From a virus, in the IMG/VR virus record IMGVR_UViG_3300031753_000004, positions 8,097 to 72,096 of that record: a DNA stretch of 64,000 bases; one strand, 5' to 3'. This document shows, piece after piece, positions 7,878 to 56,477 of this stretch (position 1 is its first letter; each line of letters starts with the position of its first letter). A program made the position numbers and the translations under genes. The notes beneath the pieces are model-generated. The model did no database searches. It had not been told where the DNA came from and was given only the letters and a program-made list of their open reading frames with translations.

Positions 7878-8201
7878 TTGTCGAAAGGAGCAGAAATCAT
7901 GTCCGCAGTTCCACTCGGCACAAAACTGCATCCCGACGGACTTTTATCCCGCCTGGCAACGGGGATAGTGCTGGCGGTAGTCCTGGTAGCTCTGGGTCTG
8001 ACGCTGTGCCTTCCCATCGCTCCGTTCATGATCGCGTTTGCGGTGCTGGCCATTCCGATAAGCCTCTTTCACTACTCCCGCCACGGCGATTGCCCGAGGT
8101 GCGGCAATAAAGTCTCGGTGAGAAAACGGAAGGGTGGAGTAACCTGTCGGGAATGCAAGACTAGGCTCCTGATTGTGAAGAATAGACTGTTAGCTACGTG
8201 A
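7878..8201 (+). CDS. Small two-TM membrane protein with C-terminal zinc ribbon (moron-like, opposite strand)
   Basis: Two hydrophobic stretches then CPRC...CREC; AAAGGAG RBS before ATG at 7899. Confidence 0.6.
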   Translation: MSKGAEIMSAVPLGTKLHPDGLLSRLATGIVLAVVLVALGLTLCLPIAPFMIAFAVLAIPISLFHYSRHGDCPRCGNKVSVRKRKGGVTCRECKTRLLIVKNRLLAT

Positions 8202-24779: not shown

Positions 24780-25079
24780 CTACTCACCGACTATAGGTGA
24801 CTGTGGCCATCCGAAGTGGCCGGTCAGCAGGCCCAGCAGGAAACCGATGAAGAGGAACATGGCGGCTGGTATCCACGGGAACGCTTTCCATAGCCTCTCC
24901 ATCCCTCTGCTAATGCTCGCTTCGTTCCCCCACTTGCGTATCAGCCACCCATCTATCCACCCGATCAGGGCCACGAACAGGAGCAGTGCGGGTATCAGGC
25001 ATACGGCAGCCGCCAGACCTATCGAGGTCGGGGTTATGGCTATCACTTCTCCCACGGCGGATACCTCTCCCCGCCCCAC
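24780..25079 (-). CDS. Small two-TM membrane protein
   Basis: Hydrophobic segments, ASISR, LTGHFGWPQ. Confidence 0.5.
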   Translation of the reverse strand: MGRGEVSAVGEVIAITPTSIGLAAAVCLIPALLLFVALIGWIDGWLIRKWGNEASISRGMERLWKAFPWIPAAMFLFIGFLLGLLTGHFGWPQSPIVGE

Positions 25080-25363
25080 TGATCTCCATTCCTCTCGTAG
25101 TACCCTCCGAACTTAGGGCAGTTGTCGTACCAGCAGGCATAAAGCGCCCCGTCTCGGTAGAGGTAGTAGCAGTGCTTGGACTGCTTGACCCACTTCAAGG
25201 ACGGCTGGTACTGCACCTGTTGGTACTGGTAGCTCTGCATCTGGGGCATGTAGCCCATGCCACCACCGAAGCCGCCCATGCCCATCGAGGACGCACCGCC
25301 CCCGCCGCAAGAGCCGCCGCCTCACCCACTGACCGTCATCGCTAGTAACAGGATCGAGTACAT
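25043..25363 (-). CDS. Secreted Gly-rich protein with in-frame UGA at codon 14 (candidate selenoprotein, otherwise pseudogene)
   Basis: RBS TAGGAG, then ATG 25363 MYSILLLAMTVSG-TGA(25324..25322)-GGGSCGGGGASSMG, continuing in frame with ORF 25043..25285. Confidence 0.55.
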
Positions 25364-25396
25364 TGTTGCTGCTCCTAAACAGAGAAACCTAGCGCG

Positions 25397-25621
25397 TCAA
25401 AGCAGGCTGGCAAGGAACTTGATCGCGAAGATGGCCACCACCACGGCCACACAGATCCAGAAGATGCGAATAACCCAAGGCGGAATGGTATAGCCCAGTA
25501 CACCGAGGATGATGTACATGATGGCGATAATGCCACAAATGATTATCAGAGCGACGATCCATTGAATGAGACCCCAGGTCGCTATTGGTCCAACCGCCTG
25601 CGCTAGCATGAGAGCCGACAT
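25397..25621 (-). CDS. Small two-TM membrane protein (holin-like)
   Basis: Two long hydrophobic helices around TIPPW. Confidence 0.5.
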   Translation of the reverse strand: MSALMLAQAVGPIATWGLIQWIVALIIICGIIAIMYIILGVLGYTIPPWVIRIFWICVAVVVAIFAIKFLASLL

Positions 25622-25628
25622 GGTTCAC

Positions 25629-25976
25629 CTACTTCTTGTAGACCTGGAGAGCAATGGTCAGTGCGCTGAAGATTATCATCAGTACCGCCGCATACGCTGC
25701 CAACCTACTCTTGACCTCCGCTACCGATGTGGCCAGTGCCACATGAGACTTCAGCAGCTCCTCGTACCTCTTGTCCGCGATCCCGGCCACCCTATCCGTC
25801 TCTCTCCTTTGCAGCTCCAGTGCCTTGTCGTTGCTGTCCAGCCTCAGTTCAATACGTTCCCGAATAGCCTCATCTCGGTGCTCCAAGTACTCCCTTACCG
25901 ATACCAGCGAATCGTTCTGGCTTTGGCGAATCCTTCCTGGCTTCCTGTTGACCATACCTATCGTGCTGCACTGCAC
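25629..25976 (-). CDS. Coiled-coil protein with C-terminal TM (XhlA/holin-like)
   Basis: Heptad region then AAYAAVLMIIFSALTIAL. Confidence 0.5.
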   Translation of the reverse strand: MQCSTIGMVNRKPGRIRQSQNDSLVSVREYLEHRDEAIRERIELRLDSNDKALELQRRETDRVAGIADKRYEELLKSHVALATSVAEVKSRLAAYAAVLMIIFSALTIALQVYKK

Positions 25977-25985
25977 AAATCTTGG

Positions 25986-26387
25986 CTAAGCCTTCCGGTA
26001 AAACGCTGCCCACGCAACTAGGGTTCCCACTATCAAGGTGCCCACGGCAATCATCAACCCCACCAACCACTGCTGACCTGCTGTCCTTGCCTCCATACTC
26101 GCCACCCTCGACTCCAACTTCTGCGCCGTGCCGAAAGCCAAGTCAACCTTTTCCGTGAGTGACTTCTGCTGCTCCCTCCAGGTGTCTTGGCTGACGTACT
26201 TCTCGAAATTCTGCTGTGCCCGCGCGTGCTCGTGATTTAGCTCGTTCAGTCGCCTCTCGTACTCCGAAGCCTGAAGGCGCTTCGCGTTTTCAGAGGACTC
26301 GAGCGCCTCCCGGAGAATCTTGACATCGGCCTCCAGGTCCTTGAACTCACGTAGACCTACGTGGTCTCTGGCGCTGTCGTTGGGCAC
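25986..26387 (-). CDS. Coiled-coil protein with C-terminal TM (XhlA/holin-like)
   Basis: EYERRLNELNHEH coil then WLVGLMIAVGTLIVGTLVAWAAF. Confidence 0.55.
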   Translation of the reverse strand: MPNDSARDHVGLREFKDLEADVKILREALESSENAKRLQASEYERRLNELNHEHARAQQNFEKYVSQDTWREQQKSLTEKVDLAFGTAQKLESRVASMEARTAGQQWLVGLMIAVGTLIVGTLVAWAAFYRKA

Positions 26388-26420: not shown

Positions 26421-26492
26421 TGGCTCGGCTGGGATTTGCACCCAGGTTCTCCAGGTTATGGGCCTGGCGAGATACTGCTTCTCCACCGAGCT
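26421..26492 (-). tRNA. tRNA-Met(CAU), initiator-like, atypical
   Basis: AGCTCGG TG GAGA AGCAGTA TCTC G CCAGG CCCATAA CCTGG AGAAC CTGGG TGCAAAT CCCAG CCGAGCC A; cloverleaf with 1:72 mismatch; no encoded CCA. Confidence 0.8.
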
Positions 26493-32279: not shown

Positions 32280-32571
32280 CCGGCACTTGCGAGTAGTGCA
32301 AGTCGTCATGATGGAAAAGCGGCTGACGTTTAGCAGCCCTCTCCTCCAGTACACGGATCTTTGCTTCGGTCCCAGGGATAGCTCTCACCGGCCACGTAGG
32401 GACCGTGCTCATCTCCCCGCCGTAGTCGTTGCATCGTTCGCCTTTGCATGACTTGGCGACTCGTGGATACAGCACGCGAATCTCAACGCGCCGGTAGCAG
32501 CGCCAGCACAGGCCGCGTGACTCGGTTCCGGGTAGTCTCCGGCAGTGGCGGCAGTAGGGGATGGTGTTCAT
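32260..32571 (-). CDS. Zinc-finger protein with planctomycete-type PGxxxKIxVLxxRA..LFH domain
   Basis: CRHC...RGLCWRCY; AIPGTEAKIRVLEERAAKRQPLFHHDD. Confidence 0.6.
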   Translation of the reverse strand: MNTIPYCRHCRRLPGTESRGLCWRCYRRVEIRVLYPRVAKSCKGERCNDYGGEMSTVPTWPVRAIPGTEAKIRVLEERAAKRQPLFHHDDLHYSQVPDEEPTD

Positions 32572-35500
32572 AGGATTCCCTCCGGCGCATCGCTGGCCTC
32601 GAAGTCATCTAGACTCTTGGCTCCAGACTTCTCGGCAGCTTCCTCAATGTCTTCCTTGGTTCGCTTTTGATCTGAGTCGTCTTCGCCCACGTTGGCCGGC
32701 AAAAATGCGCATCTACAGTTCACGTGCGCCGGGATCATTCCGTGAGCATCATCGATGCTTAGCACAACCCCTTCCATCGGCGAACATTCTTCGCAATTAT
32801 GGACAAGCACACCATTAGCGTAAAACTCCTCTTCATCTTCCACCTGGATGTTGTAGACTGGAAGTGGAATACCAAGCAGTGAATGACCTATTACATCGCT
32901 TTCAGTCAAGAGAGCATAACAATGCCGTTTGAGTTCACGTGCCCCACTTGCAGCACAAGTTTTTATCGACGCACTAAGGGACTCTATCGTGGAGTGAAGA
33001 AGCGCTATTGCTCGTTCGCGTGTTCCCTCAAAGGCAGGAGGGAGGGTGGCTTTAAGTTCGTCTGCGACCAGTGCGGCAAGACATTCAAGAGTCATACTGC
33101 GACTCAAAAGGCCTCCTGCTCTCGCCGGTTCTGTTCCCATCGGTGCTATTCGCTGGCCCGCCGCAATGGTGCCGAACATCCTTGCCCGATTTGTGGGAAG
33201 AAGATCCATCGGTGGGCTAGTTCTATCGTCAAAGGCGATCGGCGCTTCTGCTCCAGATCTTGTTACGAGTCCTCTAGGCAAAACGAGGTCGCTAAGGTCT
33301 GCCTCGGCTGCGGTAAGTCCTTCACTGTCAATGGCTCTACTTCCGACCGATACGCATATTGTTCGGTCAAGTGCCGGGTCAAAACCAAGGGAGGCGAATA
33401 CAGACGGTGCCGGTCCTGCGGAAAGCGAATCCTTTTGGGCGGCTGTGATAAACGCCGTGGCAATATGAGGAAACATTGCTCCGAAGAGTGTCGCCGTCCT
33501 CCAGTTATCCAGAAGTGCGTCACCTGCGGCACTGAATTTAGGAGAGTTCCATCCAACACCAAGAGGCGCTTTTGCTCGTTCGCTTGCTACCGTCGCTCGC
33601 GCCATGAAACCTCTCTTGAGCGAATGGTACGGCTCGCACTTGACAGGCTCGGCATCGCTTACATCCAAGAGGCACGAGTCGGCCGGTTCTCTGTGGACTT
33701 CTTGCTCCCACACACGATGGTCGCTATTGAGGCCGACGGCACCTACTGGCATCGAAACACCGAGAGGGACGCCAGGAAGAATACGTGCCTCTCCCGCTTG
33801 GGATGGCGCGTCTACCGAATCACCGAAGCGGAAGTTAATAATGCCAAGGATGTCGGCAAGCTCATTTCCGACCGTCTGCAATGTCTGTTCTAACCGAAGT
33901 TTCCCGGCCGCTGTCCATCCTTGTTCCGAAGTCCAGAACGGGTGATTGGCGGTCGATGTGTTCCTGCCGACCGCTGTGAGTACGGTCGTCATCGGTCCTT
34001 CGTAGTCTCTCACGAACGTCTTGAGAACCGCACGCCAGCCGCCTCTTGTCCTCACTTTCATGCCGACCAGTATGTCTTGGATCGGCACTTCGCCTTCCTC
34101 CGTCTCGACCAGAGTCCACGCTGGAAAACACACATGGTCGTCCCCTGCCGTGCTCCACTCGACCGCTACGCCGACCTCTTGCACTCCCAGGTCTTCCATT
34201 GCGTCAAGCTGCCCTTCGGCGTGGGCTCGGATAATCTCCGTGCGTGCAACCGCTTCCGCCCTCACCTCCGAAAATCCAACCTCGTCCTCCAGGTCGCCAG
34301 CAATCTCCAAGGGATGCTTTCCTTGCACTAATCCATCTGTGAGGGCTCTGCTGCACTTATTCGACATATCCTCCGTCACGTTCTTCAGCTCATCGAACGT
34401 GCGGTCAGCCAGAAGCCGCACTTTCTCAATCGACTCCGGCTGCGCGAAAGACGACCGCAGGAACTCTTCGCGCGTGCCCCGGTAGAAGTCGCTCACCGAC
34501 TGTTGCGCCTCAGCCGTGAATAGCTCGGGATGCTCCTTGCCCAGCTTGGACATTCGCACATCGTCAAACGCTCTGCCGGCGCCTTTGGCGAAGCCTTCTT
34601 GGATGTATCGCTTCCAGCGCTCCTCTTCGGTTTCGTTGCTGATGAGGGAGAACGTCTGCCGCTTGAGCCACGCCTGGAATGCCTTCACCTTGTCGGTGGG
34701 ATCGTGGAACATCCAGCGGGTGTTGACTACCAGCGAGTATGTTCCTTCGACGTGGCGGAAGGGAACCTCAACGGTTCTGAACTCTCTGGCGTTGGTAGTC
34801 AACATCGGCTTCGGATGCTTCTCGTACAAGTCGTGCGCCAGGTCAATAGCCTGCATCACCCCGCCCGTCTCGTCCAATGCCGCCGACAAGAGAGCGTAGT
34901 ACCAATCGTTGAACCCGTGCGCCTCGAGCGCCATAGCCACGGTCGCAGCGTTCTCTTGCTCCGAGTTGTGGATGAGGTATCGCTTGACACCACCGCTCAC
35001 CTTGCCGGCCGCCTCTTTGACGAGCCCGGTAGCAGCACGGATTGTGGCCAGCGGATCGCGGGCCGTCGAATACGCCAGATATCCCACCGAGGCCACAGGC
35101 AGAGTCCCGGTCACTAGCGCGGGCAGATGGGCCGCATGGACGCCTGCTATGGCGCTGAACTTAAACGCCTCGAATGTGCCGAGGTCGATCTTGCTGAGCA
35201 CCCCTCGGAGTTGCTTGGCCTGCTCTGGAGTATGGCCACGCTCTCGCGCTGTCCTCTCGGCGAGCGCCTGCGTGGACGTGAAGACTGCGAACGCGGCAGA
35301 GATCCCCATCTTGCCGGCGTAGGCTAGCGGGCCGTAGGTGGCATTCACCGCGTGGGGTAAGTGATCTGGCAGGCTTGATACCGCTTTACCAATGCCGTCT
35401 GCTGCGTAGGACTTGGCAAGGTGCTCGATATGGGCAGCGCCGGTGCCTACTGCCTTCAGGCCGGTAAGCATGCCGGAGAAGGAGATCCTACCTTCGCCTT

Positions 35501-36449
35501 CAAGAGAACCGAACTCGCCGCCTTCGCCCCATCTGCCGTGTTCGTCGCGGGGCTGGTCTGGGCTCCAATTCCGAATGACTTGATCCCTGATTGGCATTCC
35601 TGTTCCGCTGCCACCTATCCAATGCTTGAAGGCCGACATGGTGACGGCCTTCATCCCGTCGAACCCGGTCCAGCCCTCCGAGTAGTTATCGTGATAGGCT
35701 TTCTTGGCGTCCTTCGCATTCGTGAAGCCGACCATGCACTTGTGCTCGTCGAACGTACCGTCCTGCCGCTTCTGGTCGATGATGAACACGACCTCGCTCT
35801 CTGGGTGCGGACCTAGAAACACGTCCACATGGTCACCGTCCGCCTCGCTCTCAGTCCTCTTGATGTAGCCGTAGTGGTGGGCCATTCGCTGGACGTAGCT
35901 CTTGCCCCGGCGAAGGTTGCCGGCCGCTACCTCTATGGTGATCGGAAGCCCCTGGACCGTGACATGGCCCTTGCGGTAGTTGCCCGCCTCTTTCTGCTCG
36001 GGTGATGGGTCGGGGTCGGCCTCACTTGCTGCCGCCTCAATCGCCGCTCGTAGATCGCGGTTTACCGTAAACGGCTCTCGCTCCTTCAGCCCGAAGGCGT
36101 CCTCGTCCACCAAAAGCTTGACGATCCTACCCTTGAGGAGCGCAAACTGCCGCTTGATCTTGGCACAGAACGCCCGGCGCATCGTCACAGTTTTTGTCGG
36201 ATCAAGGCGCGATGCCTTGACGCTCGGCTTCTTCTTGGCCTTTTTGTTGGCGCGGAGTTTCAGCTTGTTTGTGGCGATGCGGTTCGGTTTGCGCTTGGGG
36301 AGCTTCTTGCCCTTTGGAGTGTGCTCCTCCCAGCGCTTGGCCATAGCGGGATCGTTGGCGTGCATCCATGCGCGCTGTTTTTCAGATACAAACGGGTTCA
36401 CCGTCAGGGCGTTGGCCGTCGGTCGGCGCTTCTTGGGTCGGACTTTCAT
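32568..36449 (-). CDS. Polyvalent Mu gpF-like head morphogenesis protein with InPase-like domain and an intein
   Basis: Probable start MKVRPKK at 36449; RAEAVARTEIIRA, EWSTAGDDHV/CEEC...IPAHVNCRC (gpF); EQKEAGNYRKGHV...HYGYI...DGDHVDVF...FDEHKCMVGF (InPase-like domain of polyvalent proteins); WSPDQPRDEHGRW. Confidence 0.85.
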   Translation of the reverse strand: MKVRPKKRRPTANALTVNPFVSEKQRAWMHANDPAMAKRWEEHTPKGKKLPKRKPNRIATNKLKLRANKKAKKKPSVKASRLDPTKTVTMRRAFCAKIKRQFALLKGRIVKLLVDEDAFGLKEREPFTVNRDLRAAIEAAASEADPDPSPEQKEAGNYRKGHVTVQGLPITIEVAAGNLRRGKSYVQRMAHHYGYIKRTESEADGDHVDVFLGPHPESEVVFIIDQKRQDGTFDEHKCMVGFTNAKDAKKAYHDNYSEGWTGFDGMKAVTMSAFKHWIGGSGTGMPIRDQVIRNWSPDQPRDEHGRWGEGGEFGSLEGEGRISFSGMLTGLKAVGTGAAHIEHLAKSYAADGIGKAVSSLPDHLPHAVNATYGPLAYAGKMGISAAFAVFTSTQALAERTARERGHTPEQAKQLRGVLSKIDLGTFEAFKFSAIAGVHAAHLPALVTGTLPVASVGYLAYSTARDPLATIRAATGLVKEAAGKVSGGVKRYLIHNSEQENAATVAMALEAHGFNDWYYALLSAALDETGGVMQAIDLAHDLYEKHPKPMLTTNAREFRTVEVPFRHVEGTYSLVVNTRWMFHDPTDKVKAFQAWLKRQTFSLISNETEEERWKRYIQEGFAKGAGRAFDDVRMSKLGKEHPELFTAEAQQSVSDFYRGTREEFLRSSFAQPESIEKVRLLADRTFDELKNVTEDMSNKCSRALTDGLVQGKHPLEIAGDLEDEVGFSEVRAEAVARTEIIRAHAEGQLDAMEDLGVQEVGVAVEWSTAGDDHVCFPAWTLVETEEGEVPIQDILVGMKVRTRGGWRAVLKTFVRDYEGPMTTVLTAVGRNTSTANHPFWTSEQGWTAAGKLRLEQTLQTVGNELADILGIINFRFGDSVDAPSQAGEARILPGVPLGVSMPVGAVGLNSDHRVWEQEVHREPADSCLLDVSDAEPVKCEPYHSLKRGFMARATVASERAKAPLGVGWNSPKFSAAGDALLDNWRTATLFGAMFPHIATAFITAAQKDSLSAGPAPSVFASLGFDPALDRTICVSVGSRAIDSEGLTAAEADLSDLVLPRGLVTRSGAEAPIAFDDRTSPPMDLLPTNRARMFGTIAAGQRIAPMGTEPARAGGLLSRSMTLECLAALVADELKATLPPAFEGTRERAIALLHSTIESLSASIKTCAASGARELKRHCYALLTESDVIGHSLLGIPLPVYNIQVEDEEEFYANGVLVHNCEECSPMEGVVLSIDDAHGMIPAHVNCRCAFLPANVGEDDSDQKRTKEDIEEAAEKSGAKSLDDFEASDAPEGIL
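32796..34130 (-). mobile_element. Contiguous intein (445 aa) in the gpF-like protein
   Basis: Block A CFPAWTLVET, block B TANHPFWT, blocks F/G VYNIQVEDEEEFYANGVLVHN followed by +1 Cys; removal restores the gpF motif WSTAGDDHVCEEC. Confidence 0.92.
32883..33893 (+). CDS. Zinc-finger-repeat endonuclease (Vsr/DUF559-like PD-(D/E)xK C-terminus) nested antisense within the intein
   Basis: Six CxxC...CSxxC repeats, then ETSLE, RFSVDF, IEADGTYWH, DARKN, GWRVYRI; probable start ATG 32922 after AAGAGAG. Confidence 0.88.
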   Translation: MTYYIAFSQESITMPFEFTCPTCSTSFYRRTKGLYRGVKKRYCSFACSLKGRREGGFKFVCDQCGKTFKSHTATQKASCSRRFCSHRCYSLARRNGAEHPCPICGKKIHRWASSIVKGDRRFCSRSCYESSRQNEVAKVCLGCGKSFTVNGSTSDRYAYCSVKCRVKTKGGEYRRCRSCGKRILLGGCDKRRGNMRKHCSEECRRPPVIQKCVTCGTEFRRVPSNTKRRFCSFACYRRSRHETSLERMVRLALDRLGIAYIQEARVGRFSVDFLLPHTMVAIEADGTYWHRNTERDARKNTCLSRLGWRVYRITEAEVNNAKDVGKLISDRLQCLF

Positions 36450-36573
36450 TTCTTGTCCTTGAGCAGGTCCCGTATCTGCCGCAGATAGGCGGAGATGTTG
36501 CACAGAACCAAGAATGACAACACGGCCAGGGTCGCCTTTGCCCACTCATCAAGCAGGTTTTCGTATGCTCCAA

Positions 36574-53170: not shown

Positions 53171-53787
53171 GCAGCCTCCAGTGCTGGCGTCTCTCGGTCC
53201 AGGTATGGCGTCAGCTTGCGAGCGTTAGCCCAGTCCAAGAACGCCCTGAGCCAGCGGCGGCAATCGGCTTCTAGCTCCGCATAGCGCCAGAAGCGGAATG
53301 AGTCCACGGAGCGAAGCTCGCAATACCCGCATTTTGGGTCCTTGAAGTTCCAAAGGTTGTATTGGACGCTGGCCGCGTCGTGGACGAGCAAGTAGGCCCG
53401 CCACTGGAGGGACGGCTCATAGTCTCTGGCGTCCGGCGTGCCGAACTTCGCCTTGTTCTCTTGAAGCGCCAAGCCGCGAACGTGATCGACCTGGGCGACG
53501 AGCGCGACCGGCGAGCCATGTACATCGAGGATCTTCGTTGACTTCACCTCGCAGAGGCCGGAGCCGACGTAGGCCCGCGCCTCGCCCAGCATCTTGCTAT
53601 CGAACCAGAATTCGCGCGTTGAGTATTCGCCGCATAGCGCCGCTTGCCAAGTGGACCCCGCGCGCATCTGCCAAGTCGGTTCAAAGGGCTTTCCGGCTAT
53701 CTGGTCGATGAGTTCTTGCTCCACCGCGTATTCGCTCTGTAGCACGCGGCGGAAAGATTCCAGCGTGGTAGTTGATACTCTGAGCAT
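53167..53787 (-). CDS. PD-(D/E)xK exonuclease (Cas4/RecB-like)
   Basis: Start MLRVSTTTLESF at 53787; CEVK, VD...ENKAK, SLQWRAYL; adjacent to Sak4-like gene. Confidence 0.6.
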   Translation of the reverse strand: MLRVSTTTLESFRRVLQSEYAVEQELIDQIAGKPFEPTWQMRAGSTWQAALCGEYSTREFWFDSKMLGEARAYVGSGLCEVKSTKILDVHGSPVALVAQVDHVRGLALQENKAKFGTPDARDYEPSLQWRAYLLVHDAASVQYNLWNFKDPKCGYCELRSVDSFRFWRYAELEADCRRWLRAFLDWANARKLTPYLDRETPALEAA

Positions 53788-55676: not shown

Positions 55677-56477
55677 TCACACACGTCGTACTTGTCGCAG
55701 ATCATCGACCCTCCCCGCCTCCGGTATCCGCGCCTCCGCCTCTTTCCGCCGGATGACGTTCTCTCGCCAGCGCATTGCGTACCGCAGACAGTTGGCGCAG
55801 GACTTATGCCTACCGACGCACTCAGGGAGCGGCGGTCGTTTTCTTGCCTGCTTGCTCCACGCCATCGAATCCGCCGACTCCATTACGTCGCCCACCAATC
55901 GGAGCCCGTCCGTTTTGAAACCGAAGCCGTGCAACCGCAGTCCGTGGCAAGCCAAATCGAATATGATTCGTCCGGCCGCTGCCGTGGCCTGTCGTCTGCA
56001 AAGGCTTCCGACCCCTACCAGCGGCAATGACCTAAGGTCGATACCTGCCGCCTCGTACTGGCGCAGATGGTCGATGTATTCGCGGTGCGCGAACCCCTGA
56101 AGCACTGGCACCCAAGGAACCGACGGAGCAAGCTCGCGGAGATGGACGTAGCTAACAAGCGTCCGCTCTTGGTGGTCTCGCACAGTGAGTCCAGTTTTCT
56201 CCAGCATCACCGTTTCGCACATCCAGTCTTGGACCGACGCCCATTGCATCCGGCCTATTTCTTTCTGCCAGCGCTGGACTTCTTCTGCGTATTGCTCAGC
56301 GCTGACCGTCCATCGCCCGTGCTTGTCGATTTCCGAGAACGCCCCTGAGTCGAGCGCCCACGGCCCGGCAGCTCGCGGGAACGTTTTGTATCGAAGCAAC
56401 CGGACGCGAGACACAAAAAGTGGGACCACGACATGGTTCAGCCACCCCGGTTGATGCGTTCCCAGGTAGAAGATCAT
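55677..56477 (-). CDS. tRNA-guanine transglycosylase-like protein (DpdA-like, candidate DNA base exchange)
   Basis: ALDSGAFS, QDWMCE, PVLQG, VGVGSLCRR, LHGFG, SADSMAWS. Confidence 0.75.
   Translation of the reverse strand: MIFYLGTHQPGWLNHVVVPLFVSRVRLLRYKTFPRAAGPWALDSGAFSEIDKHGRWTVSAEQYAEEVQRWQKEIGRMQWASVQDWMCETVMLEKTGLTVRDHQERTLVSYVHLRELAPSVPWVPVLQGFAHREYIDHLRQYEAAGIDLRSLPLVGVGSLCRRQATAAAGRIIFDLACHGLRLHGFGFKTDGLRLVGDVMESADSMAWSKQARKRPPLPECVGRHKSCANCLRYAMRWRENVIRRKEAEARIPEAGRVDDLRQVRRV

Follow-up and report, generated by a model that had tools for sequence, protein, structure and literature searches.

A conserved in-frame UGA at a lipobox position, followed by a bacterial SECIS-like hairpin, in a small tailed-phage gene: a candidate phage selenoprotein

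Introduction

The insertion of selenocysteine (Sec) is by far the commonest known cause of a conserved in-frame UGA in bacteria. Here we describe such a UGA in a small minus-strand gene of a tailed phage (25363-25043), the product of which is possibly the first phage-encoded protein to contain selenocysteine. The DNA analyzed, referred to as the window, comprises 64 kb (positions 8,097 to 72,096) of the 72,096-bp IMG/VR virus record IMGVR_UViG_3300031753_000004, which possesses direct terminal repeats and is rated 100% complete. The locus shares with bacterial genes carrying a Sec-UGA and a bacterial Sec insertion sequence (bSECIS) an in-frame UGA that is conserved in orthologues and lies where Cys would be functional, together with a stem-loop 24-25 nucleotides (nt) from UGA to loop, in which the loop reads G then U and the folding energy is below -7.5 kcal/mol. 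It differs from them in being phage-encoded, in having no redox-enzyme fold, and in that a Cys-form homologue was not found in the protein searches given below. In bacterial selenoproteins the UGA lies in the active site of an enzyme, whereas here it lies at the junction of signal peptide and lipobox.

The bSECIS consensus is that of Zhang and Gladyshev, as summarized in a 2026 review of the prokaryotic selenoproteome (PMC13188914); in that review the terms “phage,” “virus,” “viral,” and “lipoprotein” never occur. The efficiency of Sec recoding in E. coli is given as 30-40% (PMC4513850). The viral selenoproteins named in one review are the glutathione peroxidases (GPx) of two poxviruses, molluscum contagiosum and fowlpox, only, and the fowlpox SECIS element likewise lies inside the coding region (PMC8310308). 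The present gene resembles these in being a virus gene in which UGA would be read as Sec by means of host machinery. The poxvirus GPx genes are captured cellular genes that depend upon a eukaryotic SECIS and SBP2, whereas here we are dealing with a prokaryotic virus, an orphan beta-domain protein, and a bacterial-type hairpin beside the UGA.

Small lipoproteins of phages include o-spanins such as lambda Rz1 and the superinfection-exclusion lipoproteins Llp of T5 and Cor. The product described here is similarly small, with a hydrophobic leader that closes in a lipobox-like V-S-G and a Gly-rich tether behind the would-be acylation site, and its gene stands among late-region genes for small membrane proteins. 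It differs from them in that neither sequence nor fold searches gave a match, no gene beside it was seen to encode a partner of the i-spanin type (with an N-terminal membrane helix), and the codon for the acylated Cys is UGA. Programmed readthrough and bypass are found in phages in the Q-beta A1 protein and in T4 gene 60, respectively, where, as here, a stop lies inside a continuous frame, with matched flanking Gly codons and a nearby hairpin. Those events extend or join large domains, whereas the present stop falls 13 codons in, at a motif residue, so that the identity of the inserted residue matters. Leader attenuators of the erm/cat type also possess a short upstream open reading frame (ORF) with a good Shine-Dalgarno (SD) sequence and, farther downstream, a hairpin that borders on the next start codon. 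In contrast to these, the present locus has a single hairpin with no alternative pairing, the stop of the mini-ORF lies 17 nt before the hairpin, no SD sequence is sequestered, and the mini-ORF is in frame with the body of the gene and signal-peptide-like.

Layout of the UGA-containing gene

The gene, all features of which lie on the minus strand, opens at ATG 25363-25361, 8 nt after the SD sequence AGGAG (25372-25376), and there is no other in-frame start between the preceding in-frame stop and this ATG. The first 13 codons (25325-25363) specify a hydrophobic, signal-peptide-like segment, MYSILLLAMTVSG, the last three residues of which (V-S-G) correspond to lipobox positions -3 to -1. It is followed by an in-frame TGA (25322-25324), the candidate Sec or otherwise recoded codon, beyond which the frame stays open for 92 codons (GGGSCGGGGASSMGMGG...) until the terminal TGA (25043-25045), which forms a GTGA overlap with the GTG start of the next gene (25046-25044). 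The downstream part begins with a linker (25202-25321), Gly/Ser-rich at first and then Met/Gly/Gln-rich, which is predicted to be disordered; within it lie a second Cys codon (TGC, 25307-25309) five residues past the UGA, giving the arrangement U/C-x4-C, and an internal ATG at 25285. The remainder (25052-25201) is a conserved C-terminal domain of about 50 amino acids (aa), predicted to be a five-stranded beta meander and belonging to no named family.

The ribosome-binding site, the ATG, the TGA, and the 92 further in-frame codons had been proposed in an original prediction made from the nucleotide sequence, and all are present. It had also anticipated that gene callers would begin at the internal Met, and public gene calls do start at ATG 25285, yielding an 80-aa product, P0003. 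An SD motif is present for ATG 25363 and absent for the internal ATGs at 25285 and 25279.

A lipobox has the form [LVI][ASTVI][GAS]-C and stands at the end of the hydrophobic region of a lipoprotein signal. The UGA occupies the position of its +1 Cys (V-S-G, then C), a coincidence that the original prediction, which had spoken of a Cys-like position, had not seen. The triplet V-S-G precedes the UGA in both of the phage lineages described below, and only a reading of the UGA as Cys or Sec would complete the lipobox; a Cys-like residue is therefore the natural reading. A relaxed scan of the window for start codons followed by 10-40 codons with a hydrophobic run and a lipobox-like tripeptide at their end, then by a stop and 40 or more open codons, returned the UGA gene as its sole match on the coding strand and five unrelated sites on the non-coding strand, so that no second signal-peptide-plus-stop case was found on the coding strand. 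A scan for SD-preceded short ORFs that run in frame past a stop gave 36 rows, and the other 35 are, by eye, unlike this case.

A second lineage with the same UGA

Five matches were found when 1.84 billion representative proteins were searched exhaustively with a profile. These are P0003 (the product of the window itself), P0004 (85 aa), P0005 (80 aa), P0007 (73 aa), and P0006, the last of which is a low-complexity match within a protein of 2655 aa. The other four are all called from the Gly/Met-rich region, and none possesses a signal peptide. P0005 is encoded on another IMG/VR record, G001, at a locus designated L001. There, an ATG at 2914, coupled to the preceding gene through an ATGA overlap with its stop, opens 12 hydrophobic codons, MIPLLIALTVSG, ending in T-V-S-G; these are followed by TGA (2950-2952) and then by GSGGCSVGSSPMMM..., in frame with the conserved domain. 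The residues after the TGA are GSGGC..., that is, a Gly/Ser linker in which, as in the window, the fifth residue is Cys. TGA is thus present at the aligned codon in both lineages for which DNA is available, and the same TGA is found in L002, a metagenome contig that is 100% identical to L001 over 6043 bp. The first lineage is likewise represented by two assemblies, P0003 being encoded on two contigs.

A considerable distance separates the two lineages: the capsid proteins share 90% identity, yet only 109 of 208 fourfold-degenerate sites of the capsid gene agree (52%). The structural genes show 70-78% DNA identity between the window and G001, and the domain of the UGA gene about 36-45% identity. 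The last ten aligned codons before the TGA comprise five with synonymous-only differences, two that are identical, and three replacements (I/P, L/I, and M/L; manual count), the synonymous differences including the Val, Ser, and Gly codons of the lipobox and two Leu codons. Downstream of the TGA the frame is open for 86 codons in L001, compared with 92 in the window. Taken at the level of sequence, this pattern indicates that the upstream peptide is translated and under selection, that the downstream frame is under selection too, and that the intervening TGA is maintained. Since the TGA has been kept across separate lineages, each in two assemblies, a sequencing error or a decaying pseudogene is unlikely.

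Further homologues are scarce. Among viral contigs only G001 was recovered using the gene product, a neighboring membrane protein, a degenerate DNA pattern, and the capsid as queries, and 11 of the 12 matches to the degenerate pattern were due to chance. Metagenome contigs yielded only L002 as a homologue, genome contigs yielded none, and a search of GenBank phages with P0004 gave no match.

The hairpin downstream of the UGA

An 8-bp hairpin, CGGGGGCG-GUG-CGUCCUCG (25286-25304, minus strand), with two G-U pairs and a 3-nt loop, is the candidate bSECIS; it is present as originally predicted and appears in the minimum free energy (MFE) fold. Its base lies 17 nt past the UGA, the distance from UGA to loop is 25 nt, and on its own it folds with -10.3 kcal/mol. 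The corresponding hairpin of L001 (CGUGGGC/AGUUC/GCCCAUG, 2970-2988) has 7 bp, a 5-nt loop, 24 nt from UGA to loop, and an energy of -10.7 kcal/mol, and it begins at the same nucleotide, 17 nt past the UGA, as that of the window. The published bSECIS constraints are an apical loop of 3-9 nt, an upper stem of 4-16 bp, 16-37 nt from UGA to loop, and an MFE of at most -7.5 kcal/mol, with a G as the first or second loop nucleotide, most often preceding a G or U (PMC13188914). Both hairpins satisfy every one of these constraints. The search for a bacterial SECIS that the original prediction had proposed did not tell against it in either lineage.

Hairpins of this quality are uncommon after UGA triplets in the window. 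The coding strand contains 958 UGA triplets. When only ungapped stems are allowed, these rules are satisfied at 34 of them, and the stability of the window hairpin is reached at 7; for the 58 gene-end UGAs the figures are 3 and 1, respectively. A slightly altered set of rules selected 13 of the 958 UGA triplets and 195 of 9131 sampled positions. In an alignment of the two sequences, 15 of the 16 pair cells (8 pairs) are standard pairs; the comparison of window and L001 reveals four invariant pairs, two with one-sided changes (G-C to G-U or the reverse), and one double change (G-U to U-A), while in L001 the innermost pair does not form. When the 3′ partner is shifted by 1-3 columns, the pairing falls to 37-62%. 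The evidence that the feature exceeds chance is mixed; to judge from these sequences, the same TGA with a same-register hairpin in a second phage provides the strongest support.

The encoded protein and its paralogues

An AlphaFold2 model predicts that the N-terminal 48 residues are disordered, the predicted local distance difference test (pLDDT) being below 50 for residues 7-48. Over residues 51-100 the pLDDT is 78-91 (10-residue blocks), and residues of about 55-104 form a confidently predicted five-stranded beta unit with strands at 56-62, 65-70, 73-79, 88-92, and 95-100. No family was found for the protein in Pfam or PHROGs, Foldseek gave no match at E≤0.001 against PDB or BFVD, and the ESM Atlas held no usable match for P0003.

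The same domain recurs within both phages. In the window, a paralogue of 133 aa, P0009 (36933-37334, minus strand), carries it behind an ordinary N-terminal signal peptide (MRAAIGIVLTTLCLSISPAQQ...). In G001 two paralogues lie directly downstream of the orthologue, namely P0008 and the N-terminus of a 292-aa protein (L001 3207-3647 and 3754-4632, plus strand), and P0010, on a third contig, has the same beta domain. This orphan domain of about 50 aa, with a pattern resembling W..K....YYLY....L..CYYD....Y.....W....PPW, is thus found as two copies in the window phage and as three in tandem in G001. The three paralogues and P0010 possess, by eye, ordinary signal peptides (MRAAIGIVLTTLCLSISPAQQ, MVKYIVSTLAFCCLAMQG, MKRAVAILILLCGFPVQA) with Gly-rich linkers after them, in P0008 a poly-Gly tether, and the N-termini of the paralogues are positively charged (MR..., MVK..., and MKR...). 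Because the paralogues carry ordinary signal peptides, the family can be regarded as extracytoplasmic, and a form of the UGA gene without a signal peptide would therefore be anomalous.

Interpretation

We read positions 25363-25043 (minus strand) as one gene, that of a small phage protein which is extracytoplasmic and probably lipid-anchored. Its product would consist, in order, of a 13-residue hydrophobic signal ending in V-S-G, the recoded UGA at lipobox +1, a disordered tether rich in Gly, Ser, Met, and Gln, and the beta domain of approximately 50 aa. The ribosome would not simply terminate at the UGA; the codon would be decoded as Sec, delivered by the SelB-tRNA(Sec) complex of the host, which the conserved hairpin 17 nt downstream would recruit. 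The mature protein would then begin with Sec and have a Cys at +5 (U-x4-C). That the UGA is recoded in one way or another seems to us rather probable; that the residue is Sec is held tentatively, as the single most likely reading. It accounts for the location of the UGA at a Cys-type position, for a hairpin with G-U in its loop, and for the continuity of signal peptide, tether, and domain. We infer, then, readthrough of the UGA, the insertion of Sec, the lipidation or cleavage of the protein at this residue, and an envelope role.

A number of observations weigh against Sec. The original prediction had proposed Sec at the UGA and had looked to homologues for a decision: the conserved TGA and the bSECIS-conforming hairpins speak for its proposal, and the one homologue with DNA has TGA and not Trp, Gly, or Arg at this codon, but the Cys form (TGC or TGT) was not found in the exhaustive profile search (5 matches) or in two further protein searches (2 and 5 matches). 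Cys homologues are said to exist for nearly all selenoproteins (PMC12013277); the family is tiny, and the missing Cys form is weak negative evidence. Homologue DNA comes from two lineages only. Neither phage record (the window phage and G001) contains a tRNA-Sec or a suppressor tRNA. The covariation in the hairpin amounts to one double change in two sequences, with an uninformative shuffle control (245/500). The 71-nt local fold of the window is no better than dinucleotide shuffles (z -0.07; 89/200 as good), and that of L001 is mildly better (z -1.64; 13/200). Rfam gave no match at E≤10, and SECIS-like structures become commoner with rising GC content and include many false positives (PMC12013277). 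The signal segment is only 12-13 residues long and, unlike in the paralogues, neither MYSILLLAMTVSG nor MIPLLIALTVSG contains Lys or Arg. No precedent for a phage selenoprotein or for Sec in a lipobox was found in the literature searched, judged from titles and abstracts. Lastly, the Met at the start of the called ORFs (Met27) is invariant in all four orthologues, which fits internal initiation.

With internal initiation the locus would have two products, a leader mini-ORF of 12-13 codons ending at the UGA and an 80-aa protein begun at ATG 25285 through reinitiation or hairpin-regulated initiation; gene callers would in that event have chosen the correct start. The four orthologous database proteins (P0003, P0004, P0005, and P0007) are all called from the region of that Met, a short uncharged peptide makes a poor signal peptide, and between the TGA and the internal Met the lineages differ by 7 replacements and 0 purely synonymous changes (manual count). 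Furthermore, the 3′ arm of the hairpin stops just before ATG 25285 and includes an ATG in L001, where the candidate starts are GTG 2971 and ATG 2986, an arrangement reminiscent of start-codon sequestration. The restart would, however, have to take place 36 nt past the stop with no SD-like motif before ATG 25285 or 25279, so that the locus does not look like one under upstream-ORF control, and a ribosome at the UGA would presumably not reach the hairpin 17 nt downstream. The sequence of the peptide is itself conserved, its end coinciding exactly with a lipobox in which the stop takes the place of the Cys, the paralogues are secreted, which makes a cytoplasmic form anomalous, and the Ser-Ser upstream of the first internal start codon is shared with P0004, the N-terminus of which (MSSMGMGG) matches the Ser-Ser-Met at that point. 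On balance we think two separate products somewhat unlikely. Recoding by a route other than Sec we consider unlikely to a greater degree. It would involve low-level near-cognate readthrough by a Trp or Cys tRNA, or a 3-nt hop of peptidyl-tRNA(Gly) from GGN to GGC; little full-length secreted protein would be made, and the UGA would act as an expression throttle. Lipidation or function could then reside in the conserved second Cys. The conserved TGA and the signal peptide support it as much as they do Sec, no Cys homologue was found in the protein searches, Gly codons flank the stop in both lineages (GGG-TGA-GGC and GGC-TGA-GGC), and the conserved Cys five residues on is preceded by small residues (G-G-S-C and S-G-G-C). 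Yet such recoding would leave the conserved, bSECIS-conforming hairpin without a role, and Trp at lipobox +1 would destroy the very motif that the position of the UGA mimics. A G after UGA is no notably leaky context, and to our knowledge programmed readthrough or hopping is very rare in bacterial genes, both of which count against it. A +1 frameshift at GGG-UGA was considered separately and rejected, the conserved domain not being in the +1 frame.

Artefact, pseudogene, and a variant genetic code are, even when taken jointly, quite improbable. A mutation or sequencing error might have produced the TGA from a Cys codon, since TGC and TGT each differ from it by a single substitution; but such a broken gene or assembly artefact would have to account for the same TGA in a second lineage with merely 52% identity at fourfold-degenerate sites, for two assemblies per lineage, for the synonymous-only changes among the upstream codons, and for frames of 92 and 86 codons open downstream with a domain conserved in P0004 and P0007, and we regard it as very improbable. 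If phage or host translated TGA as Trp, Gly, or Cys by a variant code, the frame that is open across the TGA would be explained. TGA is, however, the commonest gene-terminal stop in the window, closing 58 of 111 greedy minus-strand ORFs, several of them within ATGA or GTGA overlaps; the UGA gene itself ends with TGA in a GTGA overlap, and no suppressor tRNA was found in either phage record. Given this standard usage of TGA as a stop, a TGA-sense code is in effect ruled out.

Gene neighborhood

The window virus is a tailed phage, with genes for a large terminase, portal, capsid-type structural protein, tape-measure protein, helicase, and Sak4-like annealing protein, and essentially all of its genes are encoded on the minus strand. 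The gene directly downstream of the UGA gene (24780-25046, minus strand), translationally coupled to it, encodes a membrane protein of 88 aa. The homologue of this protein in the second lineage (L001 2387-2677, plus strand) lies upstream of the UGA-gene orthologue, with an unrelated 74-aa gene in between; the module has thus been rearranged between the lineages, and the layout of the UGA gene is unchanged.

The neighbors of the UGA gene specify small membrane proteins, two tail-anchored coiled-coil proteins, a WbsX-like protein, and a trypsin-like peptidase. The coiled-coil-like proteins, of 115 aa (25629-25976) and 133 aa (25986-26387), are encoded by adjacent minus-strand genes and each possesses, by eye, a C-terminal hydrophobic tail-anchor; next after them is a gene for a 74-aa protein with two hydrophobic segments (25397-25621, minus strand). 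For these three proteins there was no Pfam match above the curated cut-off (two sub-threshold matches for the 133-aa protein) and no PHROG match. Together with the UGA gene they may constitute a lysis or envelope module, and the set of neighbors fits a module directed at the envelope. A spanin-like, exclusion, or adhesion role is possible for the UGA-gene product. With regard to an o-spanin, neither the protein nor its neighbors match a PHROG family, and the hydrophobic segments of the coiled-coil neighbors are, by eye, C-terminal and not N-terminal.

The phage possesses a single tRNA gene, for Met(CAT), which in both lineages lies 1-2.8 kb upstream of the UGA gene (26421-26492, minus strand, in the window and L004 3689-3762, plus strand). 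Elsewhere in the window, the product of 55677-56477 (minus strand) strongly matches the phage queuine tRNA-ribosyltransferase family (phrog_1279, E 7.6e-89), which suggests 7-deazaguanine modification of DNA or tRNA. A multidomain virion protein of 1325 aa (32568-36545, minus strand) matches PHROG families of minor head and head morphogenesis proteins as well as a DarB-like antirestriction family. A 35-codon frame at 53225-53332 (minus strand) opens with MRVLRASLRGLIPLLALCG... and resembles a lipoprotein signal possessing the usual Cys; ORF 53271-53525 overlaps it in another frame, so that it may have arisen by chance.

Regarding the host, the nearest Atlas cluster of the neighboring peptidase is commonest in Planctomycetota, the phylum being known for 16 of its 140 members; a planctomycete host is a lead only. 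The best isolate match of the capsid is 31% identical and therefore offers no host clue. Some planctomycetes have complete sets of Sec-insertion genes, and one analyzed strain lacks a complete set (PMC4807772).

Significance

More speculatively, and we would put this as a possibility to be entertained with reserve, the gene would encode the first phage selenoprotein, with Sec at lipobox +1, which Lgt and Lsp of the host would convert into a diacylglyceryl-selenoether “selenolipoprotein,” or which would form part of an exposed N-terminal Sec-x4-Cys pair. In the latter case signal peptidase, instead of lipidation, would expose the Sec-x4-Cys on the Met-rich tether as a redox or metal-binding head. 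In either event the phage would tie the production of an envelope protein to the selenium status of its host and to SelB.

On the practical side, all four known orthologues have been truncated by gene callers to forms without a signal peptide, which should serve as a warning. Should the UGA not be read as Sec, one would still be dealing with a rare instance of programmed recoding or leader-peptide control in a DNA phage, based on a conserved UGA that falls 13 codons into a signal peptide. If it is, Sec at the acylation site of a lipoprotein would be new biochemistry for Lgt and Lsp, and a phage gene that depends upon host SelB would constitute a new kind of host dependence and a possible marker for Sec-competent hosts.

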